A stretch of DNA of 64,000 nt from Candidatus Saccharimonadota bacterium (GCA_034520885.1 JAXHNE010000003.1:22073-86072); one strand, 5' to 3'. Positions 10,303-57,199 are shown, numbered from the stretch's first letter. Numbers and translations are program-made. Notes: generated by a model not told the origin, from the letters alone.

Positions 10303-10306
10303 TAAC

Positions 10307-10330
10307 TGTTATATAACTAGTTATATAACA
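10307..10330. repeat. 24-bp perfect palindrome TGTTATATAACTAGTTATATAACA, copy 1
   Basis: Self-complementary by inspection; starts 5 nt after the rplA stop. Confidence 0.9.
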
Positions 10331-10445
10331 GTTTATAGTTGTCAGTCTTCAGTTGTCCGTTCTCAGTCTTCAATCAGCAGATTACAGACAACAAATCACG
10401 GATAACAATTCAAAATATGAAAACTGGCGCCAAACGGTTCAAATA

Positions 10446-10487
10446 AATAATACTAGAATTAATACTAGCATTAATTCTAGTATTATT
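10446..10487. repeat. AT-rich perfect hairpin (18-bp stem, 6-nt loop)
   Basis: AATAATACTAGAATTAAT-ACTAGC-ATTAATTCTAGTATTATT; all 18 pairs checked by hand. Confidence 0.85.
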
Positions 10488-10813
10488 GCTCTGCAACAGG
10501 GGTTAGACAACTGTAACTATAAGATCAATATCGTAGGCAGTAACGAATTATATGAAGCTGACTGGTCAGCTTCCCGTCAGCAATCTTTTGAGTCGGCAAA
10601 AGATTGCAACAAAAGCCGACAGGCGGCTGAAACAACAGCTACGGCCGTTGTCACAATCAGGCTTACTGTGAAACTCACAAAAATAGTCCCACTGGCACTA
10701 TTTTTGCTCAGACAGTCCTCGTACCCAAGGGCGCCTAATTCCCACAACGCCCGTCCAGGTTGTTCCAGAGCCTGGAGCCCAGGTGAACAACTGCCGAGGG
10801 CAGTTGTAACTAC

Positions 10814-10840
10814 ATAAAAAAACAAGCTTGAGGCTTGTTT
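10814..10840 (-). terminator. terminator-like hairpin (T-run on minus strand)
   Basis: A7 followed by AACAAGC-TTGAG-GCTTGTT. Confidence 0.35.
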
Positions 10841-10904
10841 GCCCAAACAGTTCGGTCAGAGCCCGGAACAACGCAACTACCGAAGACGGAGGACGGACAA
10901 CTGA

Positions 10905-11165
10905 CAACTACCACCCCTCATCTATCGCCTATCATCCATCAACTATCAATCCTCATCTATTGCGACGAAGTCGCTCGCCATCTTCCACCTTCCAAATTCC
11001 ATCTTCCACCTACCAACTACCACCTACTAACTACCACTCATCTATCATCCATTGCGACGAAGTCGCCTACCACCTACTAACTTCCATATTCCAACTTCTA
11101 CCCTCTAACCTCTAACCTCTAACGTCTACCCTCTAGCATCTAACCCTTAAAACCTATAAACTAAC
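10905..11165 (+). repeat. G-depleted tract with 7-nt periodicity, interrupted by two GCGACGAAGTCGC hairpins
   Basis: CCA recurs every 7 nt from 10978 to about 11036. CTA recurs every 7 nt from 11098 to 11163. ATTGCGACGAAGTCGC occurs twice (about 10959-10974 and about 11051-11066). Confidence 0.8.
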
Positions 11166-11169
11166 CAAC

Positions 11170-11649
11170 ATGGGGCATATTCACGAACTCTACGATTTTA
11201 CGGCCAGCGCGTTTATCGTGAATGATCAGCGAGTATTGCTTATACACCATAAAAAAATTGGCAAGTGGCTCCAGCCCGGAGGGCATATTGAGCTTGATGA
11301 AGACCCTTTGCAGGCGCTATACCGTGAAATCAAGGAGGAAACTGGCTTAACCAAAGACGCGCTTTCGATCATTGAGACGACACAGCATAAACGAAGTCGG
11401 GGCAAGAAAGGCAACAACAAAATATTGCCGCTACCGTTTGACATCAACGTGCATCCTTTTAACGACACTCATAAACATATTGATCTTTGCTACTTATTAA
11501 CCGCTAGTCACGACACTGTCGTAAATGAAGAGGATAAAGCCCATGATATTGGGTGGTTCACGCTGACAGAAATAAAACGATTAACTGCGCGCGGTCTGGC
11601 GTTCCCCGATACGCTGGAACTGGCTACCTTCGCGCTTAAATACGCCTGA
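11170..11649 (+). CDS. Nudix hydrolase
   Basis: Nudix box GGHIELDEDPLQALYREIKEETGL. Confidence 0.85.
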   Translation: MGHIHELYDFTASAFIVNDQRVLLIHHKKIGKWLQPGGHIELDEDPLQALYREIKEETGLTKDALSIIETTQHKRSRGKKGNNKILPLPFDINVHPFNDTHKHIDLCYLLTASHDTVVNEEDKAHDIGWFTLTEIKRLTARGLAFPDTLELATFALKYA

Positions 11650-11728
11650 AGTTCTGCTACAATAAACTTATGATTATGCTGGCAATTCGACGCTGGGTTC
11701 CGTATTTGGATGAAATGCAAGAAAGGGT

Positions 11729-12502
11729 GTGTTTTTCAAAATGATCGTACTGGGAATGACCGGGCCGATTAGTCACGGCAAAACCACCTTCGCCGAAGCC
11801 CTTGAAGAACTGGAGCCCAAAACCATCCACCTGGAGTCCAGTATCGTGATCGCGCGGGTGGCCAATGCCATGCACGCCGTTTTGGAGCGCGTGCCCGATC
11901 CGTACGATATCCAAGATTTGAACGAATGGCTGAAGCATCTGCCCCGAATTTTAAAAGAAACCGTCCACACCGACGCTACTTTCGAGCAACTTCGCCTGGA
12001 TCAAGCCAGTATCGAACAGCACCCGGTAGAGTATCAAAAACTGATTATTCACGTTGAACAACTGCGTAAAGACCCGGGGCTAGCGCGCCAGGCAATAACG
12101 ATTGACAATAAAGAAACGTATCGACCGTTTTTGCAGTGGCTGGGCGGTTATCTCGTGCAAAAAGTCGATTCCGACATCTGGTTCAACGAAATCGTTCGCA
12201 TGATGTACGAGGCCGAGTCCACCGGTGTGAAGCTGTGTATTATTGGTGGTTTACGTTTTCCCAACGATGCCGCGGCCATTCGCCACGCCGGCGGGCAAAT
12301 CGTAAAAGTCTATCGGCCCGGACATTTGCAAAACGACATGCTGGATCCGACGGAACGGGAACGTGATAATATTCCGGTGGACTGTACGATTATGAGTAAC
12401 GGCACCGTAGAAGACGTTAAAGTCTGTGCCAAACACGTACTGGAAGATATTCGCAATAATCGCTTGTCCTCGTTATACCAAACCAAACGCGAAAATACCT
12501 AA
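11729..12502 (+). CDS. P-loop nucleotide/nucleoside-monophosphate kinase-like protein
   Basis: N-terminal MIVLGMTGPISHGKTTFAE Walker A; sits inside a deoxypyrimidine gene cluster. The start could be the internal ATG at 11741. Confidence 0.45.
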   Translation: MFFKMIVLGMTGPISHGKTTFAEALEELEPKTIHLESSIVIARVANAMHAVLERVPDPYDIQDLNEWLKHLPRILKETVHTDATFEQLRLDQASIEQHPVEYQKLIIHVEQLRKDPGLARQAITIDNKETYRPFLQWLGGYLVQKVDSDIWFNEIVRMMYEAESTGVKLCIIGGLRFPNDAAAIRHAGGQIVKVYRPGHLQNDMLDPTERERDNIPVDCTIMSNGTVEDVKVCAKHVLEDIRNNRLSSLYQTKRENT

Positions 12503-12603
12503 GCATAAGCTTATTGGATAATATTACAACGCTTTTGACAATTTTTTACTTGCCGATTCCTCTGTTAGTTAGCTACACTGGTAGTCAAACGCGGAGGTAA
12601 CGT

Positions 12604-13317
12604 TTGGGAGTTTATAGTAATAAACAAATTCGTGAGGCGATAGAAAACGAGCATATTGTCTGCGTGCCGTTTAATCCGAGACACGTCAGCCATGCCAGTA
12701 TGGACGTAACACTGGGGTATTACTTTTATCAAACCGACCAGGCCAAAAAAGGCTATGTCTACAATCCGTTCGATGAAGCCGACGTCCGGCGCTATTTCGG
12801 AGAGGTACAGCAAGCAGTGCCGCACAAGGACTGGTGTGCCGCCAACGGCGTACGTTTACTCGAAGGCGTCCCGGGAGATCACCCGGTAATCCCGCTCGGC
12901 CCGGGAGAGCGAATCCTGGCTCACACCCACGAGTTCTTCGGTATCAAGCCGCCGGGAGCGTACGAGGTGAAATCCCGTTCCAGCTGGGGGCGCAACGGCA
13001 TCGCGGTATGTTTTGACGCCGGCTGGGTCGACCCGGGGTATATTAATCGCTTAACCCTGGAAATTTATAACTTGAACGAACACGAAACAGTGCTGCTTCC
13101 GGTCGGCGAACGAATCGCCCAGGCGGTCTTCTTAGAAACCGGTGAGGTCGAAGGCAACTACGGCGAAGGGCGTGACGACGGTATGAGCGGTAAGTACCAA
13201 ACCGGCACCAACCTGGAAGAGCTGATTTCCGGATGGACGCCGGAGCAGATGCTTCCCAAAGCGTACAAGGACAAGCGTTCTCTCCCGGGAGTGATAAAGG
13301 GTTTAAAAGCCCGGTAA
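12604..13317 (+). CDS. dcd: dCTP deaminase (dUTPase-fold)
   Basis: TTG start; motifs SMDVTLG, GWVDPGYINRLTLEIYN, VGERIAQAVF typical of the Dcd family. Confidence 0.8.
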   Translation: MGVYSNKQIREAIENEHIVCVPFNPRHVSHASMDVTLGYYFYQTDQAKKGYVYNPFDEADVRRYFGEVQQAVPHKDWCAANGVRLLEGVPGDHPVIPLGPGERILAHTHEFFGIKPPGAYEVKSRSSWGRNGIAVCFDAGWVDPGYINRLTLEIYNLNEHETVLLPVGERIAQAVFLETGEVEGNYGEGRDDGMSGKYQTGTNLEELISGWTPEQMLPKAYKDKRSLPGVIKGLKAR

Positions 13318-13394
13318 CCCCCGTTAAAAACGGTGATGGAGATTTATATGAGTCAGGACACGAGCAAACAAACACGGAAAGGGCCTTTAGCGGG

Positions 13395-15740
13395 ATGACA
13401 CAAGCCGAGGAACAAGGTGTGTTTTTTGTTATTGAAGGAACTGACGGTTCCGGCAAAGGTACTCAGTTTCAAAAATTAGCGGAACGGTTAAGCGGTGAAG
13501 GCTACGACGTCGCCACCTTTGACTTTCCGCGGTACGACCAACCCTCCAGCTATTTCGTACGTGAATATTTAAACGGCAATTACGGCTCCGCGGAAAATGT
13601 CGGCCCTTACACCGGTTCACTGTTTTACGCTTTGGATCGTTACGCGGCCGCCCGGCACATACGCGAAGCGTTAAACCAAGGCAAGATCGTACTGGCCAAC
13701 CGTTTCAGCGGCTCTAACATGGCGCACCAAGGAACGAAGTTCCAACACAGCGAAGAACGGCGCGGCTATTTCATTTGGCTGGATAATTTGGAATTCCAGA
13801 TGCTGGACATTCCGCGCCCGACCAAGTCGTTCGTGCTGCGCGTTCCGGCGGATATCGCCCAAAAACTGGTCGACCAAAAGGGCAAGCGCGAATATACCGA
13901 CAAAAAACGCGATTTGCACGAGGCAGATATTGACCACTTGCGAAAATCGGTAGAGGTGTTCGACGAACTGTGCGAACTCTTCCCCAGGGATTTTCAGCGG
14001 ATAGATTGCGTGCGGGATAAAAAGTTGATGGACGTTGAGCGGGTACACGAACAACTGTATAAAACCATTGAGTCGTATCTGCCCAAACCGAACGAAAAGC
14101 CTGGCTCTCAAGACTCCAAAGCGGCAAAAACGGAAGTCAAAACTACCAAGGGCGACGTTGAATACGTCACCAAGGATGACGAAGGCATTTACCGCATGAC
14201 GAAAGCCGGCGAGGATTACTTAAGTGATATCGTTACCAGCACCGAAGATAACGTCTACGCTTTTACCGAGGAACTGCCGCCATTGACCATTTCCGCGGCC
14301 ATGGCCCGCCTCTCACGCCGGGGTGACGATATGCGCGTGACCATTTTGGACGAGTTCACGCACGCCGCGCAAAAGGACGAAAAACTGCTTAAAAAGGTGA
14401 TCACCGCTTACGGGGACGACTCCGTGCAGCAGCTCGTCGGGCAACACGTCGTGGTGGAGGAAGCCTCCAACCTGCTGACAAAAAAGCTGGAATGGGGGCG
14501 TTTGGCGGCCTATTTGGAGCAGTCCACGCGCTACATTTACTTTGATCAGAAGGATCGCCGCGGTAAATACAAATATGTCGTACCCGATCACTTCGATGAA
14601 CCCACCAAAACGGCGTACGTAAAATCCATGGACACTATTTTTGACGGGTATTCCAAGCTGGTACGCCAACTGACCGATTATATTCGCGGCAAGGACAAAA
14701 CGCCGGAAAAAGAGCGTGACGGGGCGTGGAAAGGCGCGACGCGAGCCCAGGCCTGTGATGCCGCCCGCCCGCTGTTACCGGTGGCCACCAAGTCCACGGT
14801 GGGTATTTACGCCTCCGGACAGGCACTGGAAAGCCTGATCATGCACTTAATGGCCGACGAACTCCCGGAAGCCAAACGAACCGGTGAAAAACTCCTCAAG
14901 CACGCCCGCGAAGTCATCCCCACGTTTTTGGAAAGAGCCGACAAGCCGGATCGTGGCGGAGCCACCATTGCTTATTTGGCGAACACGCGAAAAGGCGTTG
15001 CCGAACTAGCCAAAAAAGAACTCCCGGAAAACTATGCCCCGGAAACCGAGGCGGTCACTCTTAATTCGCACTGGCCGAAAAATGAGCTCGACCTGGTGCC
15101 GGATATGCTTTATGAACACAGCAGCTTGCCGCTGGAAGACATTAAAAACGAAGTCCGCACCTGGCCGATCGATAAAAAATACGAAGTGTTCGACGCTTAC
15201 GTGGGCGAACGCCTGAATCGGCGGCACAAGCCGGGGCGAGCCATTGAAAAAGCGCATTACAGTTGGGATTTGGTGTGTGATTACGGGATTTTCCGTGATT
15301 TGCAGCGGCACCGCATGGTGGATGATTTGAATTGGCAAATACTTACGCCGCGTTACGGATATGACACGCCAAATATCGTGGAAGAAGCCGGTTTGAGCGA
15401 TCTGTTCCTGGCTTGTTTCGACGAAAGCCTAAAACTCTACAGCGCGCTACAATCCGCCGGTTACGAGCACGAAGCGCAATACGCCACGCTACTGGGGCAC
15501 AAAATGCGCTGGAAAGTGACTTACAACGCCCGTGAGGCCTTCCACTTGCACGAACTACGCACCAGCCCGCAAGGACACCCCGGGTATCGCAAACTCGTAA
15601 AAGAAATGCACGACAAGCTGTGCGAAGTCCACCCCGTACTTGGCGAAGCCATGAAATTCGTCAACAAAGGCGAAGATCCCGAATTATCGCGTCTAGCCGC
15701 GGAGCGCTACACCCAATTCAAGCTAAAAAACCTGTCTTAG
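13395..15740 (+). CDS. fusion protein: thymidylate kinase (N-terminal) plus duplicated ThyX-like FAD-dependent thymidylate synthase (C-terminal)
   Basis: The Tmk part carries FFVIEGTDGSGKGTQ and DRY. The ThyX-like halves carry AAYLEQSTRY, LQRHRMV...TPRYG and HLHELRTSPQGHPGYR. Start set at the in-frame ATG 13395 because the track ORF (13233) overlaps the dcd end. Confidence 0.7.
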   Translation: MTQAEEQGVFFVIEGTDGSGKGTQFQKLAERLSGEGYDVATFDFPRYDQPSSYFVREYLNGNYGSAENVGPYTGSLFYALDRYAAARHIREALNQGKIVLANRFSGSNMAHQGTKFQHSEERRGYFIWLDNLEFQMLDIPRPTKSFVLRVPADIAQKLVDQKGKREYTDKKRDLHEADIDHLRKSVEVFDELCELFPRDFQRIDCVRDKKLMDVERVHEQLYKTIESYLPKPNEKPGSQDSKAAKTEVKTTKGDVEYVTKDDEGIYRMTKAGEDYLSDIVTSTEDNVYAFTEELPPLTISAAMARLSRRGDDMRVTILDEFTHAAQKDEKLLKKVITAYGDDSVQQLVGQHVVVEEASNLLTKKLEWGRLAAYLEQSTRYIYFDQKDRRGKYKYVVPDHFDEPTKTAYVKSMDTIFDGYSKLVRQLTDYIRGKDKTPEKERDGAWKGATRAQACDAARPLLPVATKSTVGIYASGQALESLIMHLMADELPEAKRTGEKLLKHAREVIPTFLERADKPDRGGATIAYLANTRKGVAELAKKELPENYAPETEAVTLNSHWPKNELDLVPDMLYEHSSLPLEDIKNEVRTWPIDKKYEVFDAYVGERLNRRHKPGRAIEKAHYSWDLVCDYGIFRDLQRHRMVDDLNWQILTPRYGYDTPNIVEEAGLSDLFLACFDESLKLYSALQSAGYEHEAQYATLLGHKMRWKVTYNAREAFHLHELRTSPQGHPGYRKLVKEMHDKLCEVHPVLGEAMKFVNKGEDPELSRLAAERYTQFKLKNLS
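15711..15739 (+). repeat. 3'-end repeat of the tmk-thyX gene, copy 1 (functional end)
   Basis: ACCCAATTCAAGCTAAAAAACCTGTCTTA. Confidence 0.9.
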
Positions 15741-15874
15741 CTTCGTGGATTATTAGAGCAAAATTTTTAACTCCAGCGCGAAACATATCGAGTGATACGT
15801 TGAGCAAAGAGTTGGGAATTTTGGCTGATAAGGCCGGAGGTAAGGTGGTTATTTTGGTTTGACTTGGGTGTATG

Positions 15875-15903
15875 ACCCAATTCAAGCTAAAAAACCTGTC
15901 TTA
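15875..15903 (+). repeat. 3'-end repeat of the tmk-thyX gene, copy 2 (orphan)
   Basis: Identical 29 bp, preceded by ATG and followed by A, giving the mini-ORF MTQFKLKNLS-stop. Confidence 0.9.
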
Positions 15904-15912
15904 AGCCACTTT

Positions 15913-16371
15913 TTAGTCAGCTAGAGTAAGCAGGTCTTCGCGGACGCTTTCACTGGTTTCTGGTAATCGATGTGACAATACGGAAAAATTGGATGCATCG
16001 TCGATGAATCCCGTTTGGGTTGCCATTGGGCCGATACATTCAATTACTCTGAGCGTTCTTTCGCTTTCCGGATCGTAAAGATCAATCGCACCGGATATTG
16101 TGGATGGAGCTTCGAAAGTGTTTTCAGCTTCCTCGATTCCGTGAGATCGAAGATTCATGATCAAAGAAAGCCACACCTTATTGGAGACTGCTTCCGGATT
16201 GGCTACCCGAGGAAAGTGCCCAATATTAGCACTGGCTTGTTTCGTTTGGTCATTTCTAATTGCCTTAACGACTCTGTCAATTCGTTCATGCAATGGGGAA
16301 ATGTCGATTTCACCTTCCGGAGACGGTATTTCAATGCCATATTGTAGATACGGGTCATTCTCGATATTCAT
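15913..16371 (-). CDS. hypothetical protein (152 aa)
   Basis: ORF with a GAGGAAG RBS; no recognisable motif. Confidence 0.45.
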   Translation of the reverse strand: MNIENDPYLQYGIEIPSPEGEIDISPLHERIDRVVKAIRNDQTKQASANIGHFPRVANPEAVSNKVWLSLIMNLRSHGIEEAENTFEAPSTISGAIDLYDPESERTLRVIECIGPMATQTGFIDDASNFSVLSHRLPETSESVREDLLTLAD

Positions 16372-16383
16372 TGCTTCCTCATG

Positions 16384-16420
16384 AAAAAACCGGATCCCTT
16401 TTCTCGGAGATCCGGTTTTT
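16384..16420. terminator. bidirectional terminator-like hairpin
   Basis: AAAAAA-CCGGATC...GATCCGG-TTTTT. Confidence 0.45.
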
Positions 16421-16780
16421 GTCTTTCTTGATTCTTATCTATTTAAACCGTTTCCGAGTGAATTAAATGCGCACCTTCACGAATGCGTACATACGCACCG
16501 GAAGAATGTTGCAGGTAATTTGATGGATTCGGTTCATCACGTAGACAATCCTACTCTGGTAAAAAAACCTTGTCAAGTGCAAATTTTTGTACTATGGTGT
16601 GAATATTATGGCATTTAACCAATTGCGAAACTTGCTACTACTTCTCGGCCTTCGCGGGTCGTGCTTCGCAATGGTTGAAGCCGAGATCTCTTAAGAAAAA
16701 CAAAAAGATCTTGAAGACACGACCGATACAGCAAAGGCTTCAACTGTCTACGTATTAATTAAGTAAACAGGAGCTATGAA

Positions 16781-17050
16781 GTGAAGTTTGAATATGATCG
16801 ATGCGGAATACCCGAGGACGTTGATGTAGAATGGAGAGCAGTGCGCGTGGAGAATAACGACCCTGGAAGAGTGGCTCATTTTGAAGCAAGGATCCCAGAA
16901 GGTAGGCCTATTCCACACGAAGAAGCAGTACGCAAAGAGAGTGCAGAAATTCATCAACGTCGTGTTGAGGCTGATATTGTAGCTGGTGAGGAAGTTTCAG
17001 CTGAGCAAGTTGGCGTCGGTTCCATTGCCTCTCGAGTTTATGGTTCATAA
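16781..17050 (+). CDS. hypothetical protein (89 aa, GTG start)
   Basis: AGGAG RBS 7 nt upstream; no motif recognised. Confidence 0.35.
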   Translation: MKFEYDRCGIPEDVDVEWRAVRVENNDPGRVAHFEARIPEGRPIPHEEAVRKESAEIHQRRVEADIVAGEEVSAEQVGVGSIASRVYGS

Positions 17051-17051
17051 C

Positions 17052-17079
17052 TTGACAAATTAAAACAACGGCGTACTAT
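17052..17079 (+). promoter_or_regulatory. sigma70-like promoter
   Basis: TTGACA, 16-nt spacer, TACTAT. Confidence 0.4.
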
Positions 17080-17085
17080 TTTTGG

Positions 17086-17195
17086 TATGACTCTAGCGAG
17101 CACTATCATTATTACGATTGATGGAGCACACCCGAGCGGGCGCTAGGTTTATATTTGTCAAAAAAAACGAAACGGCCCCGCAAGGGGTCGTTTTT
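17086..17195 (+). ncRNA. candidate small RNA (promoter-to-terminator unit of about 110 nt)
   Basis: Bounded by the promoter at 17052-17079 and the terminator at 17173-17195; contains no ORF. Confidence 0.25.
17173..17195 (+). terminator. intrinsic terminator
   Basis: CGGCCCC-GCAA-GGGGTCG stem with a GCAA tetraloop, followed by TTTTT; an A-run precedes it. Confidence 0.6.
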
Positions 17196-17215
17196 AGTGA
17201 GAAAGGAAATAAGTT

Positions 17216-17728
17216 ATGACAACTGTACTCCCATCATCAAGAGAAGTATTAGAGAGTCAAGACCCTGGAGACTTCAAGGTAAAACAAAAAACACCAACCG
17301 AAAGATTGCTAGAAGACGATCCCATGCTGATTTTTAAATTGACGAAGCTAGCGGGTTTGGCAGGTTTTCGTGTTGAACCCACGAGAAACAACGACGGCAT
17401 GTCTAAACAGCAGCGACACGGCCAAAACGAACACAGGAGAAAATACGCGCAGGTTAGCTCCGTAACGGACCGAGTTCATGAAAGACTTGAGGGGTTTGCG
17501 TTATCGGACGACCAAATGGATCAGATCCGTCAGTTTGAAAACGGTTTTTTTCCAGCGGGCTGCGATTTTGACGATAAGGAACGTGAAACGGTGAGAAGTG
17601 GGGCCGAAAATGACGAGTTCTTGGCCTTGAGCTACGAATACTTGCCAGAGCCACAATTAGAACCGCGGGTAAATAAGTCGATTTCACACGCGGCACGGTT
17701 GGCGATAATCAATCAACACAGTGATTAA
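17216..17728 (+). CDS. hypothetical protein (170 aa)
   Basis: GAAAGGAAA RBS; no motif recognised. Confidence 0.45.
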   Translation: MTTVLPSSREVLESQDPGDFKVKQKTPTERLLEDDPMLIFKLTKLAGLAGFRVEPTRNNDGMSKQQRHGQNEHRRKYAQVSSVTDRVHERLEGFALSDDQMDQIRQFENGFFPAGCDFDDKERETVRSGAENDEFLALSYEYLPEPQLEPRVNKSISHAARLAIINQHSD

Positions 17729-17882
17729 GCGTTGATTAATAAGCGATTTTTTGCTACACTCACGATGTTACCAAAGACAGCGACCGTCTTTAGGACTTAA
17801 TCCGCCGAATGGCGAAGTCGCCGAGGAATAACTAGTGATTAGGGCTTAGGGTCTAGGATCTAGATTATGCAAGAACTTGATA

Positions 17883-17912
17883 AGTCTTTGGGTTACACCA
17901 AAGGCTTTTTTT
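17883..17912 (+). terminator. intrinsic terminator/attenuator upstream of rplJ
   Basis: AGTCTTTGG-GTTACA-CCAAAGGCT (9 bp including one G-U pair), followed by T7. Confidence 0.55.
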
Positions 17913-17925
17913 ATGGTAACGAATA

Positions 17926-18024: not shown

Positions 18025-18549
18025 ATGGCTTTAACTAAAGCAAAAAAGAAGGAAGTCGTTGAGGAAGTCTCTCAGCTTTTGAAAGATTCCAAGATGACGA
18101 TCATTGCTTCTTACCAAGGAACGCCCGTGAAGGCCATGCAAGCGCTTCGTGCGCAAGGCAGGGAAAACGGAACGGAGCTTAAGGTGATCAAGAACCGTTT
18201 GGTTATCCAGGCGCTAAAAGACACCGACTCCCATAAGGACGCCGATACGTCCGCACTGGAAGGTATGTTGTTATACGCTTTTAACGAGGGTGATGAAGTC
18301 GCTCCCGCGCAAACCATTGCCAATTTTGCCAAAAAGCAAAAGACGCTGCAGTTCGTCGGAGCGTACACCGCGGACGGAAAGTTTCTTCCGGCGGATGAAG
18401 TACGCGAACTTTCCGAATTGCCAAGCCAAACCCAGTTGATCGCACAAGTGATGAGCACGCTTTCGTCACCGCTGGACGGTTCAATCAGCGGATTGGCCGA
18501 TGGACTATCGGGAATTCTTTCCGGGTTAGAAGAAAAAGCGGCGAACTAA
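18025..18549 (+). CDS. rplJ: 50S ribosomal protein L10
   Basis: MALTKAKKKEVVEEVSQLLKDSKMTIIASYQGTPVKAMQALR...; followed by rplL. Confidence 0.95.
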   Translation: MALTKAKKKEVVEEVSQLLKDSKMTIIASYQGTPVKAMQALRAQGRENGTELKVIKNRLVIQALKDTDSHKDADTSALEGMLLYAFNEGDEVAPAQTIANFAKKQKTLQFVGAYTADGKFLPADEVRELSELPSQTQLIAQVMSTLSSPLDGSISGLADGLSGILSGLEEKAAN

Positions 18550-33481: not shown

Positions 33482-35020
33482 TTAATTTACGGTTAATGGG
33501 GCGTGGCCAAGTGGTAAGGCACCAGTTTTTGGTACTGGCATTCGCAGGTTCGAATCCTGCCGCCCCAGCCAAGAAGGATTTTCAGATTTTTCAGACAGAA
33601 CGCGCCAGCGATCGCCAAAGGCGAGGCTGGCGTTTTTGTTGGTCAGGTGGCGGTTCGTTCCGATTTTTCCGACAAACGATTTGATTTCATCATAATCGTT
33701 TGAAACAGCCAGTTTTTCAGCGTGGTGAGCGTCTCGAACCCATTGTTTCAATGGTTCGATCCAATTGTTCCCCTTTTGCCCAAAATCGGCTTTCTTTTGT
33801 TTCAAAGCCAATTTCTGCTTGATAAGCTCGTCTTTCTTGGCGAGGTAAACTTGTTTTTCAATGTTGCCGTCCAAGAATTCATTGACGAGCTTGTCCAGCT
33901 TGGTTTCGGTGGCTTTGATGCGTTCTTCAAGATTTTGAGCAAAAGCCTGCGAAGACTGGCTATTTTCCTTTCCCCAGACATCAATCTGCGCCAGCATCTT
34001 TTCTTGCCAGTCTTCGCTGATAGCAACTTTTGAGATTAACGACTTTAACTGCTCCAGCAATTTATCATCTCGCACATAGCCCTGCGAGCAAGGCACAAGC
34101 CGTTTCGAACAGCGATAGTAGGCATAAGTCCCACCGTTGCCACGAGCATATTGCGCCGTGATTGCCGCACCGCACTCACCACAAGTAAAAAGTCCGGTAA
34201 ACGGAAAGTTATGACTACGCTTGCTCTTTCTCGGCTTGGCCTTGGTCTTTAACACCTTTTGCACTTTCTCAAAAGTTGCTATGGGAACAATTGGCGGAAA
34301 ATCGCCCTCGTATACTTCGCCATTTCGCTTGATAAGCCCGATATACACAGGATTTATTAGGGTCCTCTGCATCATCGATTGGCTAAGCGGTTTTCCGCTG
34401 GCGCTCACCACGCCCCAAAAACTCAGGCGCTGGCGCAGACTCTCCAGACTGTGTCTGCCATCAGAATATTCTTCAAAAGCTCGTTTGAGTATGCGAGCCT
34501 TCACAGAGTCAAGTTCAATGTTGTGTGTCTTGAGATTGTTGACATAACCAATGGGAGCTTTACCAGGCCACTCGCCGCGCCTGAGTTTTTGGCGAATCCC
34601 ACGCTTTACATTCTCCGACAGGTTGTCGGAGTAATATTTACTTTGTCCAAAGGCCACTTGGAGCATAAACAAGCCTTGCGGAGTTGGCTCAAACCAAAAG
34701 GTTGGAAAGCGCAAAGCAACAATTTTGCCAGTGTCTATGCTGTAAATGATCTGCCCGCCATCCATACTATTTCTAGCTAGTCGGTCAGGATGCCAGGCCA
34801 GTATCCCGACTGGCTGTTTACTCTCGTGTATTTTAGCGATCATTTCGTTAAAGACAGGTCGGCCTGGTTGCTTTGCGCTTCTGCTCTCGGTGAAAGTTTC
34901 GGCAATGGCGATATTCTCTCGCTTAGCAAAGTCCGCCAACTCCGCAAGCTGCGCCTCTATGCTCATAACCTGGCGTTCTTCGTCCTCGCTGGACTTTCTG
35001 GCATAGAGAAAATACTTCAT
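33482..35020 (-). CDS. large serine recombinase (true C-terminus uncertain)
   Basis: Catalytic N-terminus MKYFLYARKSSEDEERQ, recombinase domain, Zn-ribbon CGECG...YYRCS, then a coiled coil. The last roughly 55 codons are read from IR-A and antisense tRNA-Gln. Confidence 0.85.
   Translation of the reverse strand: MKYFLYARKSSEDEERQVMSIEAQLAELADFAKRENIAIAETFTESRSAKQPGRPVFNEMIAKIHESKQPVGILAWHPDRLARNSMDGGQIIYSIDTGKIVALRFPTFWFEPTPQGLFMLQVAFGQSKYYSDNLSENVKRGIRQKLRRGEWPGKAPIGYVNNLKTHNIELDSVKARILKRAFEEYSDGRHSLESLRQRLSFWGVVSASGKPLSQSMMQRTLINPVYIGLIKRNGEVYEGDFPPIVPIATFEKVQKVLKTKAKPRKSKRSHNFPFTGLFTCGECGAAITAQYARGNGGTYAYYRCSKRLVPCSQGYVRDDKLLEQLKSLISKVAISEDWQEKMLAQIDVWGKENSQSSQAFAQNLEERIKATETKLDKLVNEFLDGNIEKQVYLAKKDELIKQKLALKQKKADFGQKGNNWIEPLKQWVRDAHHAEKLAVSNDYDEIKSFVGKIGTNRHLTNKNASLAFGDRWRVLSEKSENPSWLGRQDSNLRMPVPKTGALPLGHAPLTVN
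33497..33571 (+). tRNA. trnQ: tRNA-Gln (anticodon TTG), CCA encoded
   Basis: TGGGGCGTGGCCAAGTGGTAAGGCACCAGTTTTTGGTACTGGCATTCGCAGGTTCGAATCCTGCCGCCCCAGCCA. Anticodon stem CCAGT/ACTGG with loop TTTTGGT, T-arm GCAGG-TTCGAAT-CCTGC. Confidence 0.9.
33566..33657. repeat. IR-A left arm (92 bp)
   Basis: Perfect reverse complement of 35139-35230 by hand comparison; includes the last 6 nt of tRNA-Gln. Confidence 0.9.
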
Positions 35021-35138
35021 TTGTTTATGCTCCTAGTCCGTAAAGCGTGGGGTTAAAAACTGTCTGTTTAGTGTCGCTTGCGACGCTTTGGAAAAATCGG
35101 AATACAAAAACTTGTTTTTGTGCGTTGCCCGGCAACGC

Positions 35139-35230
35139 CGAACCGCCACCTGACCAACAAAAACGCCAGCCTCGCCTTTGGCGATCGCTGGCGCGTTCTG
35201 TCTGAAAAATCTGAAAATCCTTCTTGGCTG
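35139..35230. repeat. IR-A right arm (92 bp)
   Basis: Reverse complement of 33566-33657. It is an inverted copy of the recombinase 3' end placed upstream of the recombinase start. Confidence 0.9.
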
Positions 35231-35404
35231 CAGTTGTTGAATGAAGCTCGAACCCTGTTCGAGCGAGATAATTAAATCCCGCCCTGCGGCTCCGCCCGCT
35301 GGCATAGCCAGCGGCCCAAACCAAAAGATTTTTCTTCATGATTGTTTTGAATTTCGGCGGGTGGTTTTTTCTTTTTAATTGAATTCGAAAAATATTTTGG
35401 TTTG
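35225..35404. repeat. IR-B left arm (180 bp)
   Basis: Perfect reverse complement of 39099-39278; its outer end TGGCTG overlaps the IR-A right arm. Confidence 0.9.
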
Positions 35405-35507
35405 ACGAGCCGACCTTACAATAGTCCCATTCTTCTGGTAACATTGTAATGTAGTTTGAGGCCAATTTTCTCATTCCACCCATACAATTTAATGTTACTA
35501 TTTCAAT

Positions 35508-35699
35508 ATGATTAAATCAACTAAAATAAAGCAATTACGAGAAGATTTAGGGCTATCACGAGAAAAGCTAGCTCGACTGGCGGATGTTTCTAATAATACT
35601 CTCATCAACATAGAGTCTGGCAAACAACAAAATCCAACTATTGAAACTATGAAAAAAATAGCAAAAGCGCTTAATGTGTCGATTGAGGAGTTAGTTTAA
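35508..35699 (+). CDS. XRE-family helix-turn-helix transcriptional regulator (63 aa)
   Basis: IKQLREDLGLSREKLARLADVSNNTLINIESGKQQNPTIETMKKIAKALNVSIEEL is a typical HTH_3 sequence. Confidence 0.8.
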   Translation: MIKSTKIKQLREDLGLSREKLARLADVSNNTLINIESGKQQNPTIETMKKIAKALNVSIEELV

Positions 35700-35701
35700 T
35701 T

Positions 35702-36337
35702 ATGAAATTCGATTCACAAAAAACAATAGAGCAACTTGTGGACTATCTCATGCCAGAGTTAACGCCGTATGAGGTGGCGATGTATATACTGCTGTTCCGC
35801 AACACATATTTAAGGAGTGCAAAATCCGAAATACGAATAGGAAAAAGAACAATAGCTGATCTTTATGGTAAAGGCTCGCGTGGAGAAAAAACGAATTATG
35901 CACATGTAACAAAGCTCGTGAAGGGGCTCCAATCAAAAGATTGCATCCACATTGGCGATACAAACCGAGACGGTACCCTATATACGATATTTCTCCCAAG
36001 TGAAATACCACTGGTGAAGGAAAAATTATCCATTACTGCAGATCCAGCAGAAGAAGATTACTATACTGATCCTGAAAAAAGAAAAGAAATACTTGAAAGG
36101 GATAACTATACCTGCCACTACTGTGGTGAGAAAGTGACCGAAGATAATGCAACATTGGATCATCTATTTCCACAACATAAAGGCGGCAAACACGGAAAAG
36201 ACAACCTAAAGACAAGTTGTTTGATTTGCAATAGTATTAAGTCTGGCAAGACCTATGAAGAAGCTGCTCCACACCTGTTAAAAAGCATTCAAGATAGAAG
36301 ACAAAAACAAGTCGATCGAACAAAGTCTGGAAAGTAA
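35702..36337 (+). CDS. HNH endonuclease with N-terminal winged-helix-like domain (211 aa)
   Basis: CHYCGEKV...DHLFPQHKGGKHGKDNLKTSCLICNSIK (HNH, Cys4 type). Starts 2 nt after the HTH stop. Confidence 0.8.
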   Translation: MKFDSQKTIEQLVDYLMPELTPYEVAMYILLFRNTYLRSAKSEIRIGKRTIADLYGKGSRGEKTNYAHVTKLVKGLQSKDCIHIGDTNRDGTLYTIFLPSEIPLVKEKLSITADPAEEDYYTDPEKRKEILERDNYTCHYCGEKVTEDNATLDHLFPQHKGGKHGKDNLKTSCLICNSIKSGKTYEEAAPHLLKSIQDRRQKQVDRTKSGK

Positions 36338-36339
36338 TA

Positions 36340-38976
36340 ATGTCGGTTTCGGTGAAGACACATGCAAAAGATTATCTTCTTGAATATAAAACCAAGAATG
36401 ATATGCCTCAATGGTTAGCGTTGTTAATCCAGAAGACAATTGACACAAATGCAAAACTCTCTGATGGAGAGAAGAATCTAGTGTTCCAAAAACTACTCGA
36501 AGAAAATGGAATTAATACTCAGCAAGGCCTTGAAGAGACCAAGAGCGACAAAGGAATAGACAATAAAGAAACAATAGCCAGTTCAAAAGAACAAAAGCTT
36601 ACTTTGCAAAAAATTACTCATGTAAAAGGTGTTAATGCTCTTATTCCGAATCAGTCAATTACTCTAAGTTCAGCGTGTACTGTAATCTTTGGACTTAACG
36701 GCGCTGGTAAAAGTGGATACTTTAGAATACTCCATGAACTTGCAGGTGGAATTAAATCTAAAAACATTTTAGACAATATTCATAACCAAGGCGACGGTTT
36801 AGAAGTTAATGTGGATTTTTTATTAGATAACAGAACGCAAAAACCCTTCAAATGGGATGATAAAACACTGCGCGGTATTGCTCCGTTTGATCGGGTAAAA
36901 GTTTTTGATACGGAATATTTACCAATTTTCTTAAATGAGCGTGAAAGCTCAGTAAATATAGAGCCGCTTGGGCTTAATTTTTTTCAGACAATTGCAACAG
37001 TTATCGACGGATTTAAGGAAAAGCTAGACCAAGATCGACAGCAAGAACAAAACACGTCCCCTGACCTACAAACATTAATAGAAGTTATTCACTCTAATGA
37101 ATTGAAAATATTACTTGACAAGGATTCATTAACAAAGCAGGAAGAACAACTATTAAATAGCAATAAGCACTTTTCAAATGATGACACAGAAAAACTCACT
37201 AAATTGAAAAACGACAAGACTTTACTTGAAAAAAACAATACGGAAGACAGTAGAAAAGTGTTAAATCAAGAAAAGAAGGAGATTGATGATCTCGATAATC
37301 ACTTATCTTGCCTAAAAACAAACCTTGAAAAACTAACCAAGGATATCTCATCTGCCATAAATAATTATCTAAAAACTAAGAAAATAAGGGATGAGCGGCT
37401 AAAACAATTTGAGGTTTTAAAAAACATACCTTCTCAAGACAGTGAGGAGTGGCAAGGTTTTGTTGAGTCAGCGAAAGAATACGGTACAGAAATTGACCAG
37501 TCCACGTTTAACAGTGACGAAAAATGTATCTATTGCCATCAGCCATTGAGTGATGAGGCAATGAAGCTCATTCAGGCGTATGCTCAATATCTGGATGATC
37601 AGTCTCAACAAAATTTTAAAGACTCTGTTGATAAAGTTACCGAGCTGAAAGAAGAAATTGATGATTTAATCACGGATTTTGCTTTTTCTGAAAATTTGGA
37701 AAAAGCATTGGCCAAGATACACAATGCTCAGGAACAAGACTACAAGACGTTGGTTGCTCAAATTTTAACAGCAGCAAAGAGCCAAAAAGGAGGTTTAGAT
37801 AAAGCACTAAATGAAAAAACTGCTGTAGCTGAAAAGTATACGCTAGATTTATTTAGCGCAGACGAAAAACTTGAAAAGCTGTCAGAATCAAAGCAAAAAG
37901 AGCTGGATGGCTTGCAGCAATCATATGCGCAAAAATCTAAAAAAATAAATGAGATTGTAGTAGAGATTAACAGGCTTGAAGACAAGCGAAATATTACAAA
38001 ATGGAAAACAAAGATTGAAAATTATTTCTCAACTAGCAAGTGTGTACAAAAATATTCAGCCCTTAATCAAGCAATTAGCACAAGGGGAATTACAGAGCTG
38101 GGCTCAAAAGCACATGATGAGCTTTTGACAGATTCAATAAAAAAATCTTTTGAGGAGGAGTTAAAGGCTCTTGGCAAAGATATAGAAGTTAGTCCTGAAA
38201 CAACAGGAGCAGGAAAGGGTTCTGTGCGCACAGGACTTAAAATTTTAGGAAAAGATGTGCGTACTATCCTAAGTGATGGCGAGCAAAAAGCAGTTGGCCT
38301 TGCACTATTTCTAGCAGAGATTGAAAGCCAAAATGATAAAAGCCCTATTGTGTTCGATGACCCTGTTACAAGTATTGATCATGAAGTAGCCGATGCATTA
38401 GCAAAAAAACTTATGAGTTTGTCATCTGACAGACAAATCATTGTCTTTACTCACAACAAACTGTTCTATGACTCATTAGTCTATTGGGGAGGAAGTCTTA
38501 AGGATGAAAAAGATAATAAAACTCATCATGTGTGCAAAAACTACACTCAAAAAGGTTGTAGCGGCCAAGGTTGTCACGTTTACACTTATAAAGTCGATAG
38601 AGAAGCAAAGGATAAAACGGGTAAAATATTTGAAGCACAGAACGAATCATGCAGTTATTTTATTGAAAAAGCCGAGAAAGAGATGAAGGGCAATTACTCG
38701 TTAAGCAGTGTTTCTGGTTACTTAAAGTCAGCAATCGAATATTATATTGATGAGAAAGTGCTATTAAAAACCGGCTTGATGAAGGATCGACTTCGCGGCA
38801 TTGGAGTGCCCTGGGAAAATCTTAAAAAAATCGATAATAAAGAAGAAATCATCAATAAACCTGAGGCCTACTGGAGTAATTTAAGTAATCGCGGAACTCA
38901 TGTCACTCAAAATTCAAATGAGAACCCTTTGAAAACCGAAGACTTAAATAACATCATTGATTTTTTAAAATCTTAG
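36340..38976 (+). CDS. Rad50/SMC-like ABC ATPase with coiled-coil CxxC hook, AAA_13 / RloC-like (878 aa)
   Basis: Walker A GLNGAGKSG, long Lys/Glu-rich coiled coil with CIYCHQPL in the middle, signature LSDGEQKAV, Walker B IVFDDPVTSID, H-loop VFTHN. The C-terminal tail has LKSAIEYY...NRGTH, reminiscent of the PrrC/RloC nuclease motif. Confidence 0.65.
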   Translation: MSVSVKTHAKDYLLEYKTKNDMPQWLALLIQKTIDTNAKLSDGEKNLVFQKLLEENGINTQQGLEETKSDKGIDNKETIASSKEQKLTLQKITHVKGVNALIPNQSITLSSACTVIFGLNGAGKSGYFRILHELAGGIKSKNILDNIHNQGDGLEVNVDFLLDNRTQKPFKWDDKTLRGIAPFDRVKVFDTEYLPIFLNERESSVNIEPLGLNFFQTIATVIDGFKEKLDQDRQQEQNTSPDLQTLIEVIHSNELKILLDKDSLTKQEEQLLNSNKHFSNDDTEKLTKLKNDKTLLEKNNTEDSRKVLNQEKKEIDDLDNHLSCLKTNLEKLTKDISSAINNYLKTKKIRDERLKQFEVLKNIPSQDSEEWQGFVESAKEYGTEIDQSTFNSDEKCIYCHQPLSDEAMKLIQAYAQYLDDQSQQNFKDSVDKVTELKEEIDDLITDFAFSENLEKALAKIHNAQEQDYKTLVAQILTAAKSQKGGLDKALNEKTAVAEKYTLDLFSADEKLEKLSESKQKELDGLQQSYAQKSKKINEIVVEINRLEDKRNITKWKTKIENYFSTSKCVQKYSALNQAISTRGITELGSKAHDELLTDSIKKSFEEELKALGKDIEVSPETTGAGKGSVRTGLKILGKDVRTILSDGEQKAVGLALFLAEIESQNDKSPIVFDDPVTSIDHEVADALAKKLMSLSSDRQIIVFTHNKLFYDSLVYWGGSLKDEKDNKTHHVCKNYTQKGCSGQGCHVYTYKVDREAKDKTGKIFEAQNESCSYFIEKAEKEMKGNYSLSSVSGYLKSAIEYYIDEKVLLKTGLMKDRLRGIGVPWENLKKIDNKEEIINKPEAYWSNLSNRGTHVTQNSNENPLKTEDLNNIIDFLKS

Positions 38977-39098
38977 ATAGAATTTATAGTGCCTGATTTG
39001 GTTAAATTTAGCATCACATTTACAAGTTTGCCACTAGGCCCGCGCCGAAGGCGCGGCTGGGGTGGGAGCGGCTCCCTTACTTGCTTTAGCAAGGGAGA

Positions 39099-39278
39099 CA
39101 AACCAAAATATTTTTCGAATTCAATTAAAAAGAAAAAACCACCCGCCGAAATTCAAAACAATCATGAAGAAAAATCTTTTGGTTTGGGCCGCTGGCTATG
39201 CCAGCGGGCGGAGCCGCAGGGCGGGATTTAATTATCTCGCTCGAACAGGGTTCGAGCTTCATTCAACAACTGCAGCCA
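39099..39278. repeat. IR-B right arm (180 bp)
   Basis: Reverse complement of 35225-35404. Ends ...GGGTTCGAGCTTCATTCAACAACTGCAGCCA, which resembles a tRNA 3' end. Confidence 0.9.
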
Positions 39279-39757: not shown

Positions 39758-39974
39758 ACTATAAATTCGAGGTTAAAGCAAATATGTACTCACGCAACTT
39801 TGTTATAATTAAAGTGCCTGGTTGCCCGTAAAACTATGGTCAGGCGAGCAACTTGACTGTGTCGAGCTGCTCGCCGGGCCATAGAAACCAGCTTATTACA
39901 AGGAAGGTTGGGCAACGGTATCCAGGCTTTGGACCTGTATGCCCTAGCCAAGTATTGCAACAAAGGAGACCAGG

Positions 39975-40637: not shown

Positions 40638-40744
40638 ATAAATTCTTATCTCTAATCTAGACCGCAATGCTCAGCCATCAGACAAAATCATCAACTTTCA
40701 GCCATCAGGTTGGAGAATGTTCTGAGCAAAGCCGAAGAACGATC

Positions 40745-42177: not shown

Positions 42178-42189
42178 ATTTTGTAAAAC

Positions 42190-43863: not shown

Positions 43864-43883
43864 AAAGTTATTCTAGGTATTAC

Positions 43884-44424: not shown

Positions 44425-44509
44425 CTGTTCAGCTTTCTTACCTATTCTTTTCATCACCCCGTAAAAGTAGGTCAAAGGCCGCGCCGAAACAGCTTTTTTA
44501 ACACTTAGG

Positions 44510-44533
44510 TGTTATATAACTAGTTATATAACA
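44510..44533. repeat. 24-bp palindrome, copy 2
   Basis: TGTTATATAACTAGTTATATAACA. Confidence 0.9.
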
Positions 44534-44616
44534 AAACCAAGCCAAATGGTGCGCTGTTATGCCAAGCGGCAGTATTTTCAGTATTTAATGTGGTAAGTAC
44601 ATGTTATGTTTAAACC

Positions 44617-45378: not shown

Positions 45379-45445
45379 ATAACATAGGTGGGTAAACCTA
45401 CCGTGTTGGTACAAGAATTAATGTTTTTGTTCCAAATATAACTAG

Positions 45446-45468
45446 TGTACAAGGTTCAACCTTGTACA
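45446..45468. repeat. 23-bp palindrome, copy 2 (centre C instead of G)
   Basis: TGTACAAGGTTCAACCTTGTACA, preceded by an ATATAACTAG half-site of the 24-bp palindrome. Confidence 0.85.
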
Positions 45469-45493
45469 TGTATGTGGGTATCGTTGGGAAAAG

Positions 45494-45517
45494 TGTTATA
45501 TAACTAGTTATATAACA
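45494..45517. repeat. 24-bp palindrome, copy 3
   Basis: Identical sequence, between convergent gene ends. Confidence 0.9.
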
Positions 45518-45527
45518 ACGAAATTCA

Positions 45528-49338: not shown

Positions 49339-50256
49339 ATGAAAACCGTACTCGCCTTACTTACCGTCACCCTGGCCGAAGCGACTATCGGTGTTTTCGT
49401 AAAATTAGTGAGCGATGACGTGCCCATTTTGGCACTGAACTTTTACCGCGTGCTGTTCGCGACCGTATTTTTGGCGATCGCCTTGGCGGTAACAGGTAAG
49501 AAGTTTTGGAAGTTTCCCGATCACAACGCCAGAGACGTACTTTTGATCGCCGCTTTGATCGGCTCCCAAATCAGCTTATACAACTGGGCGATTAGCCTCA
49601 CCACCATTGCCAACGCCGTGGTGTTTTGGAGTATCGCGCCGTTTTTCGTGTTTATATTTTCCTGGGCGTTCTTGGACGAACCCGCCAAAAAACAATACGT
49701 ACTGATATTTTTGGTGGCTTTCCTGGGACTCTTTATCGCCGAGCCGTTCGGTGGCGGGCATGTTACCGGCAACCTCATTGCTTTGTTGACGGGCGCGGTT
49801 TACGCCGGAGCGATCACCTACATGCGCCACGAGGGCAAGGAAGAGACGGGTACCGACGTGTTCTGGTATTTACTAATCGCCGTGGTGTATTTGCTCCCGG
49901 GTATATTCATAAGCGGCACCGGACCGATCACCGAAATAAGCAAGCACGGTTTGTTCGGCCTTCCGGTTCCCATTATTTTTTGGGCGGTATGTTTGGGCGT
50001 AATTTCTACCGGTTTGGCCTACTTTTTCATCAGCGTGGTGTTGCGAACCGTCAGTGCGAACGTCTACTCCTTAGTGGACATTATTGTGTCGCCGCTAGTC
50101 GCGGCATTGCTGGGTTACTTGGTGTTGGCCGAAGTACCTTCCGTCGAGTTGGTTTATGGTGGCGTTCTTTTACTGGGATCGGGCTTTTGGCTCACCCGGG
50201 CCATGTCTCAGGCGGAAAAGAAGAAAATGCCGCCACCAACTAGTAACCCGCGTTAG
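49339..50256 (+). CDS. EamA/DMT-family transporter
   Basis: 10-TM duplicated EamA-like topology. Confidence 0.75.
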   Translation: MKTVLALLTVTLAEATIGVFVKLVSDDVPILALNFYRVLFATVFLAIALAVTGKKFWKFPDHNARDVLLIAALIGSQISLYNWAISLTTIANAVVFWSIAPFFVFIFSWAFLDEPAKKQYVLIFLVAFLGLFIAEPFGGGHVTGNLIALLTGAVYAGAITYMRHEGKEETGTDVFWYLLIAVVYLLPGIFISGTGPITEISKHGLFGLPVPIIFWAVCLGVISTGLAYFFISVVLRTVSANVYSLVDIIVSPLVAALLGYLVLAEVPSVELVYGGVLLLGSGFWLTRAMSQAEKKKMPPPTSNPR

Positions 50257-50280
50257 TGTTATATAACTAGTTATATAACA
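50257..50280. repeat. 24-bp palindrome, copy 4
   Basis: Starts at the base after the EamA stop codon. Confidence 0.9.
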
Positions 50281-50338
50281 ACGTATGAAGATGCGCGCGG
50301 ATTCGTATAATTTTTCATATAAGTCCGAACACCGGGCG

Positions 50339-57046: not shown

Positions 57047-57088
57047 CCGGTTACCACCCGATACACGGCTTAACGGTTGGCTTGGGGG

Positions 57089-57112
57089 TGTTATATAACT
57101 AGTTATATAACA
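57089..57112. repeat. 24-bp palindrome, copy 5
   Basis: Between the convergent helicase and MIP channel genes. Confidence 0.9.
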
Positions 57113-57199
57113 AAACGAAAAACCCTTTCGCACTTAAAAAAGCGCCCGCTCTCGGCGGACGCTTTATTAAGTAATAGCGTTGAAGTGACGTAGGCGTTA

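Follow-up and report, generated by a model that had tools for sequence, protein, structure and literature searches.

Five identical tandem-box palindromes at gene ends in a Saccharibacteria genome and their likeness to promoter arrays of AbrB-fold genes in other CPR bacteria

Background

The closest described counterparts of the sequence studied here are the autoregulatory operators of MazE, VapB (AbrB-type), AbrB and SpoVT, whose proteins have a small dimeric beta-barrel DNA-binding domain (PF04014), as has the protein family reported below. Operators of the AbrB type consist of palindromic repeated boxes over the regulator's own promoter region, and the same arrangement is found here in other CPR genomes. 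The likeness has its limits. Compared with AbrB and MazE, the CPR protein is a DNA-binding domain only, with 55-62 aa, and usually has no adjoining toxin gene at the loci examined. Its box is sharp (TTATATAA with 12-bp spacing), whereas the AbrB consensus is loose. In addition, the sites described here are located at gene 3' ends and not at the protein's own gene, as far as the window is concerned, by which we mean the whole stretch of 64 kb, from an 88.7-kb contig of a Saccharibacteria (CPR) MAG, that was analysed.

Operators with at least two short subsites about one helical turn apart, occupied by adjacent cooperating dimers, are those of Arc, Mnt, MetJ, CopG and omega. The tandem subsites make these systems similar to the present one by analogy only, as they have the ribbon-helix-helix fold in place of the swapped hairpin, and their operators are not dispersed round the chromosome. 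Another related group is REP/RAYT (REPINs), which likewise includes short multi-copy extragenic palindromes at gene ends or in convergent spacers, with a dedicated protein gene beside the repeat. However, REPs are imperfect, variable and G+C-rich, have a GTAG head, and are moved as ssDNA hairpins by a Y1 HUH enzyme, whereas the window copies are perfect, A+T-rich and composed of two tandem mini-palindromes, and the associated protein is without a catalytic module. The parS sites of ParB are also perfect palindromes in several identical copies and conserved across distant lineages, but have another sequence and length; moreover, the window copies are not significantly clustered, no ParB link is found, and the relatives are without sites.

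To our knowledge, almost nothing is known about transcription control in CPR/Patescibacteria, and our literature search returned nothing on the motif in a relevant context, nor on an AbrB-type regulator in CPR. The single components, namely the swapped-hairpin repressor, the tandem-dimer operator and the dispersed extragenic palindrome, are all known; the combination of a CPR-wide box-protein pair with perfect putative operators multiplied to gene ends in one lineage is new. A sharp operator together with one tiny AbrB-fold protein across CPR classes would make a testable regulator-operator pair.

Copies of the palindrome and their positions

The exact 24-mer TGTTATATAACTAGTTATATAACA is detected five times in the window, and the copies are numbered c1 to c5 from left to right (Table 1). 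No additional copy with one to three mismatches is present in the window, and the 24-mer is absent from 100 shuffles of it, with a chance expectation of 0. A Logan contig (SRR26473340) corresponds to window positions 42007-50958 with two mismatches and includes c2-c4; as this independent assembly reproduces them, the copies are real and not an artefact of the MAG assembly.

Table 1. Palindrome copies and related sequences in the 64-kb window
Feature	Coordinates	Strand	Description
c1	10304..10333	.	24-mer 10307-10330; flanks AAC/GTT, giving a 30-bp palindrome
c2	44508..44537	+	GG-(24-mer 44510-44533)-AAAC
c3	45492..45520	+	AG-(24-mer 45494-45517)-ACG
c4	50256..50283	+	AG-(24-mer 50257-50280)-ACG
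c5	57087..57116	+	GG-(24-mer 57089-57112)-AAAC
Partial copy ATATAACTAGT	45438..45448	.	11 of 24 nt, 56 nt left of c3, same spacer
Degenerate double box TTCGTATAATTTTTCATATAAG	50302..50323	.	22 nt right of c4

All five copies are intergenic, and each follows a stop codon of the + strand at a distance of 0-115 nt, so that the preliminary description of five identical copies at gene ends stands. The + strand genes upstream of c1 to c5 are, in order, those for rplA, a 149-aa ORF, heliorhodopsin, an EamA transporter and an AddA-like helicase-nuclease. Two close positions had been pointed out before and are both confirmed: c1 lies 5 nt past the rplA stop (and 5 nt ahead of a 575-nt structured non-coding element), and c4 begins at the first base past the EamA stop codon. 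The copy c2 is found 85 nt past the stop of the 149-aa ORF and 83 nt upstream of the heliorhodopsin ATG, with a terminator-like hairpin on its 3' side (44553-44570). The other copies are in convergent spacers. Among them, c3 follows the heliorhodopsin stop (45378) by 115 nt, with the stop of an alpha/beta hydrolase gene (45528-46343, minus strand) only 10 nt away, c4 is 58 nt from the stop of a Zincin-like (Zincin_1) gene (50339-50722, minus strand), and c5 is 42 nt past the AddA-like stop (57046) and 87 nt from the stop of an MIP channel gene (57200-57943, minus strand). At about 57146-57158, the spacer of c5 also contains a separate G+C hairpin that has a T-rich tail on either side.

Convergent spacers thus hold three of the five copies (c3, c4 and c5), as the preliminary description had stated, yet they make up only about 10% of intergenic bases; the enrichment is estimated at a binomial p of about 0.01. 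It had also been stated that two copies flank the heliorhodopsin gene, and this is the case, as c2 precedes its start and c3 follows its stop. A sigma-70 promoter scan of the window does not flag the palindromes.

Anatomy and spread of the repeat

The 24-mer has the structure T-GTTATATAAC-TA-GTTATATAAC-A, with two 10-bp palindromic boxes whose centres are 12 bp apart. It is both a direct and an inverted repeat because it contains two copies of one 10-bp palindrome, 12 bp from centre to centre. Within the window, the octamer core TTATATAA is confined to the ten boxes of the five copies, and the 10-mer is likewise seen only inside the palindromes.

Beyond the 24 bp, the flanks are alike in pairs. 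Copies c2 and c5 share GG on the left and AAAC on the right, c3 and c4 share AG and ACG, and a G on the left and an A on the right are common to all four. The agreement is present in one polarity only, with none when the flanks are flipped, and has P of about 4.5e-4 against random intergenic positions. Such paired flanks of one polarity argue for an asymmetric unit of 26-30 nt and for copies descended from one another. Judged by these sequences, the repeat unit slightly exceeds 24 bp and has a polarity, with the form RG-(24-mer)-A(AAC/CG), and appears to have been multiplied by duplication. The perfect 24-bp palindrome described at first is therefore correct in itself, while the tandem 10-bp boxes and the longer polar unit had been overlooked.

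A larger mobile element around the copies, which the preliminary description considered as another source of their identity, is rejected, as the alignment of 100-nt flanks shows unrelated sequence beyond about 2-4 nt on each side. Neither a target-site duplication nor flanking direct repeats are found at any copy, and the roughly 50 window ORFs scanned include no Y1 (RAYT, PF01797) or DDE transposase.

The five copies are identical at all positions, including those which vary among the putative operators elsewhere. In three syntenic 23-kb regions of the closest sampled relatives, whose AddA-like protein is only 68% identical, no boxes are detected; any function of the copies would therefore be lineage-specific. 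Taken together, the identical copies, the paired flanks, the relatives without the motif and the single copies in other genomes (see below) point to a recent lineage-specific dispersal. The earlier suggestion of recent spread is thus supported, also by the lack of degenerate copies with one to three mismatches.

Partial copies are few. With up to two mismatches, the 12-mer half-site has three extra matches in the window where four are expected. Four isolated half-sites had been listed before, and those at 17829, 18626 and 19162 prove to be 7-9-mers containing ACTAGT, with no enrichment. The fourth, ATATAACTAGT at 45438, is probably a real partial copy, and it may be the remnant of an older one; its chance match in one spacer is estimated as about 14 x 150 / 4^11, or roughly 5e-4. 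In addition, the degenerate double box TTCGTATAATTTTTCATATAAG has cores 12 bp apart with three mismatches in total, and 0.18 such matches are expected per window.

Occurrence in other genomes

The exact 24-mer was searched in 185,579 species-representative genomes, one genome per species. Overall, it is detected in four of them with one copy each, and none has more than one. Three of the four are CPR, namely a Saccharibacteria MAG, a Moranbacteria MAG and an unclassified MAG, and in all three the 24-mer is located directly upstream of a 55-62-aa gene annotated as AbrB/MazE/SpoVT (PF04014) or of its truncated remnant. The Moranbacteria locus has four boxes in phase, and its gene lies among rpsU, ybeY, ftsA and ftsZ with no adjoining toxin gene. 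In the Saccharibacteria MAG (CAYSQL010000116; L001 505-717), the AbrB-like gene behind the exact 24-mer is reduced to about 22 conserved residues that lead into a DUF167-like gene, which makes the locus look like an operator with a decayed regulator gene.

The fourth carrier is the chromosome of Mycobacterium sp. WMMD1722 (L003 3414-3455). In this high-G+C actinobacterium the sequence is part of a perfect palindrome of 34 bp, which precedes an NADP-oxidoreductase-TetR operon by about 60 nt, and the 24-mer is presumably the operator of that TetR. We take the site as an independent operator or a coincidence because a perfect palindrome of 24 bp has only 12 free positions. As Saccharibacteria live as epibionts on Actinobacteria, a transfer between Saccharibacteria and Mycobacterium as the source of the common 24-mer is conceivable.

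A metagenome scan gives 120 matches, mostly unrelated, and viral contigs give only two. Many short freshwater-lake contigs (in the series L008-L117, such as L061, L051, L099 and L077) have dense GTTATATAAC arrays, with up to six GTTATATAAC-AT-GTTATATAAC arrays plus degenerate copies per 2 kb. The ORFs of these contigs have a eukaryotic, transposase-like appearance, and the arrays look like subterminal repeats of a eukaryotic DNA transposon using the same 10-bp box. Another group is the contigs with names beginning JAABU (L007, L018, L037, L074, L080, L087, L089, L095, L106, L108, L121 and L124), in which the 22-mer is inside a longer repeat, ctaagcctta-(22-mer)-cttaggttag. These contigs are A+T-rich, mostly with 22-29% G+C (one with 37%), have few or no ORFs, reach up to 627 kb, and are probably eukaryotic.

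The AbrB-type protein family and its box arrays

A profile search with the small protein yields 282 clusters, and the named members of the family belong to Doudna-, Moran- and Paceibacterota, Spechtbacterales and Saccharimonadales. The members match PF04014 with E-values from 4e-10 to 7e-4, and six of the eight scanned are above the Pfam gathering cut-off. The AlphaFold model (pLDDT 80.6) has the order strand-strand-helix-strand-strand and matches MazE, AbrB-N (including DNA-bound forms), VapB and SpoVT at TM 0.55-0.75, with 1mvf, 2k1n and 5l6l among the fold matches. All tested family proteins are from other CPR genomes, not from this MAG. Homologues of the AbrB-like protein are absent from the phage and plasmid collections searched.

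The link between array and gene does not depend on a search by the box. In a protein-first test, the loci of six lineages (L128, L130, L131, L135, L141 and L145) were fetched by protein alone, and five of them, all but L131, are shown to have two to three exact TTATATAA cores with 12-bp spacing, with the core start 25-98 nt upstream of the start codon. The upstream region of L131 has no TTATATAA box array. For L130, L135 and L141 the promoter array is the sole double box in 5-20 kb. When all loci are pooled, the array is present in nine of ten lineages, with two to four TTATATAA cores 17-108 nt upstream of the ATG; the spacing is 12 bp across lineages and once 11 bp. The outer box base and the 2-bp spacer vary by lineage (TA, AT, AC, GG, CC and TT), and the core is invariant. 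A placement of the autoregulator type, with the site at the regulator's own promoter, is accordingly found in nine of ten other CPR lineages.

The Saccharimonadales contig L128 has a second double box, GTTATATAACTAGTTATATAAA (1897-1918), which precedes a 50-aa ORF and an HNH endonuclease gene by 68 nt. The AbrB-like gene, with a variant palindrome of its own, CTTATATAATTAATTATATAAG, comes directly after these two genes.

Extra double boxes are also seen in other CPR contigs. Among those on contigs that also have the AbrB-like gene, one (L145:3045) is 6 nt past a stop codon and 17 nt ahead of the next start codon, and another is at L147:990. The contig with L027, a twin of the Moranbacteria locus L004, has a second double box at L023 that adjoins a terminator. 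On contigs possibly of the same lineage as L027, there is one between convergent ORFs (L021) and one upstream of the trigger factor gene (L063). A CPR-like contig on which the AbrB-like gene is not seen has a double box upstream of ychF (L092). On a further contig (L102) the double box extends over a stop codon, with a canonical terminator behind it; no AbrB-like gene is found in the 12.6 kb of this contig that were covered, and for this reason it counts only as a CPR-like example. These extra double boxes show that the use of multiple sites, including those at 3' ends and near terminators, is not unique to the window.

Proposed interpretation as operators

Because array and gene go together consistently in the genomes, and in view of what is known about proteins of this fold, we infer that the array serves a SpoVT/AbrB-fold family of 55-62 aa, widespread in CPR/Patescibacteria, as its consensus tandem operator. 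The possibility raised at first of an operator or insulator for a dimeric DNA-binding protein gains weight from this, since in other CPR the same sequence makes up the box array close to the promoter of a SpoVT/AbrB-fold gene. As for the five window copies, we give about an even chance to the reading that they are high-affinity tandem operators of an AbrB-like protein, dispersed by duplication to gene ends.

The AbrB-like protein would then be encoded elsewhere in this genome. Each copy would hold two of its dimers, one per box, cooperating side by side, and the perfect operator would have been copied into at least five intergenic spacers of this Saccharibacterium, mostly just behind stops. 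The copy c2 might serve as an operator of heliorhodopsin from its place upstream, and c2 and c3 around this gene may permit looping. Where genes converge, the copies in the spacers would be protein roadblocks or insulators that hold back read-through and antisense transcription, or would simply be tolerated there.

Several observations count against operators in this genome. The sequence of this MAG covered here is the 64 kb of the window and, from L127, about 1.5 kb more on its upstream side, and a second search for the family gives no member attributable to this MAG. Three of the five copies have no annotated promoter at their place. The identity at 24 of 24 positions, together with common flanks, has the look of copy-and-paste rather than of an evolved regulon. 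Besides, the Mycobacterium site apparently is the operator of a TetR-family operon, which means that a different protein family could read the sequence. Within the window, neither tblastn nor the family HMM on the six-frame translation detects an AbrB-like gene or remnant. A degraded AbrB-like pseudogene downstream of c1 was tried as a candidate on weak tblastn hints and rejected, as the same HMM search found nothing there.

A more ambitious proposal would be that the CPR AbrB-fold protein, with its perfect 24-bp double box placed deliberately at gene 3' ends, and in other lineages also beside intrinsic terminators or over stop codons, makes up in such reduced genomes a protein-dependent roadblock system for insulation or termination, or else a new REP-like pair in which a plain DNA-binding protein promotes the dispersal of its own operator; we regard it as quite doubtful. 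If functional, the copies would mean protein roadblocks as insulators in compact genomes, or a new spreading route for short palindromes, and if not, operator sequences that behave as REP-type junk.

Alternative explanations

Much of the duplicative evidence can also be claimed by a selfish or neutral repeat, REP- or MITE-like, that is dispersed by copy-and-paste, survives where it is harmless such as at gene ends, and has no cellular role. Such a repeat would account for five identical copies with no degenerate ones, for the paired flanks of c2/c5 and c3/c4 in one polarity, for the decayed partial copies in two of the same spacers and for the enrichment in convergent spacers, as well as for the missing motif in the syntenic regions of relatives and the lack of any species-representative genome with more than one exact copy. 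Moreover, c1 and c5 are located at the edges of lineage-specific insertions, as compared with the usual rplA-rplJ order and with L132 and L133. The known classes of such elements, however, differ from what is found here. Unlike REPs, the palindrome is perfect, with no GTAG head, no sequence variability and no diverged copies, and PF01797 is missing from the window ORFs scanned, as is a DDE transposase; unlike MITEs, it has no flanking direct repeats or target-site duplications, and its unit of 24-30 bp is far below the usual length of at least 50 bp. The exact identity to promoter arrays of distant CPR would be left as an unexplained coincidence of about 1 in 1.7e7 (12 free positions). A selfish repeat is compatible with recognition by a protein and mainly disputes function; on balance we consider it unlikely, though it is the strongest of the alternatives.

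An element acting in RNA, that is, a 3'-UTR hairpin working as a bidirectional terminator, a stabiliser or an RNase site, would suit the position of every copy behind a stop codon and of three copies between convergent genes. At c2, c4 and c5 the palindrome stands between the stop codon and a terminator-like hairpin (the hairpins being hits of a consensus scan) and would therefore be transcribed; at two other metagenome loci, L015 and L021, the double box lies between an A-run and a T-run, like an A+T-rich terminator. The hairpin itself is weak. The RNA fold of the 24-mer is a stem of 10 pairs, 8 of them A-U, with -6.2 kcal/mol, far from a stable G+C-rich stem, and in none of the five window copies is the stem followed by a U-run on either strand (the + strand 3' flanks are GTTTAT, AAACC, ACGAA, ACGTA and AAACG). 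The spacers of c2, c4 and c5 already have their separate terminator-like G+C hairpins with T-rich tails. These facts agree with the initial opinion that the palindrome is not a textbook intrinsic terminator. Neither the tandem 10-bp boxes nor the promoter-side position at AbrB-like genes is explained in this way, and we regard a role in RNA as very unlikely.

We find it similarly hard to believe that the copies are site-specific recombination sites at the boundaries of gene cassettes, like pdif modules or a serine-recombinase crossover with central TA. Such sites are suggested by the two copies around heliorhodopsin, a patchily distributed gene, by the place of c1 on the left border of the 7.4 kb inserted between rplA and the L10 leader, by that of c5 at the border of the MIP and 338-aa genes, neither of which L132 and L133 have at that position, and by a large serine recombinase at 33482-35020. 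The layout, with arms of 11-12 bp round a 2-bp centre, is also like that of hix/gix, whereas a 2-bp spacer is too short for tyrosine recombinases. But a symmetric site with a palindromic TA core has no polarity, so five identical copies would scramble the region. Furthermore, the putative insertions have no palindrome at their right edges, and the recombinase island has none at its ends. A dif/Xer site has 28 bp, with 11-bp arms and a 6-8-bp centre as against the 2-bp centre here, and no match to the dif sequence ATAATRTAYATTATGTNAANT at up to three mismatches is present in the window. The position at promoters of AbrB-like genes would again be unexplained.

Chromosome-organisation sites near the replication terminus, like matS, parS or Noc sites, are extremely improbable, for although the cumulative GC skew peaks near c2 and c3 at about 44-46 kb regardless of gene strand, and perfect multi-copy palindromes conserved across phyla recall parS, also in their TGTT...AACA ends, the skew signal depends on no more than 20 kb with negative skew, four of five copies within 12.6 kb are not significant (P = 0.28), the match to the 16-bp parS palindrome TGTTNCACGTGNAACA is limited to the outer TGTT and AACA, 4 nt at each end, the relatives are without the motif, and the boxes elsewhere in CPR are at promoters of assorted genes. 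Clustering of the copies near the GC-skew switch was rejected on the same P value. A DNA uptake sequence would be a 9-12-mer in very many single copies, also within genes, whereas the core here is seen only in the five palindromes. A target of modification, one of the roles first proposed, or of restriction is rejected, as CTAG is not depleted in the window (82 observed against 84 expected) and nothing else supports it.

Other features of the window

The 575-nt structured non-coding element behind c1 extends over 10336-10910 and is closed by inverted arms of 28-32 nt with 86% complementarity. Its RNA fold has -199 kcal/mol, compared with -138 +/- 6.7 kcal/mol for shuffles (z = -9.1), and includes many perfect hairpins as well as a 42-bp A+T-rich palindrome at 10446-10487. 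The element has no Rfam match at E <= 1, no family-matching ORF and no phage match, and its arms are not repeated within the window. Possible identities are a large structured RNA and a MITE-like insert. The remainder of the 840-nt gene-free spacer before the NUDIX gene is filled by two 79-nt direct repeats (10953-11123; 75% identical and 92 nt apart) and by shorter C/A/T-rich repeats. On the whole, about 7.4 kb (10303-17750), with c1 at its left edge, separates rplA from the L10 leader (17753-17920) and rplJ (18025-18549). The insertion has genes of nucleotide metabolism, namely those for NUDIX, a dNMP kinase of the phage type and a dCTP deaminase, as well as an ORF of 835 aa in which a thymidylate kinase domain is combined with a ThyX domain.

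A probable integrated defence island is located at 33482-40700, where the 512-aa large serine recombinase adjoins a tRNA gene (33497-33568). A stretch of low G+C content (35-41%) comes next, with genes for a GIY-YIG protein and for an HNH endonuclease that forms a Septu-like pair with an 878-aa AAA_13 ATPase; the island contains no copy of the palindrome. Around 44000-46000 the cumulative GC skew has its peak, with positive skew to the left and negative skew to the right whatever the gene strand, which is a terminus-type pattern. In addition, a SAM riboswitch (S-box) is found at 40897-40996, directly upstream of a homoserine O-succinyltransferase (metA-type) gene at 41035-41958.
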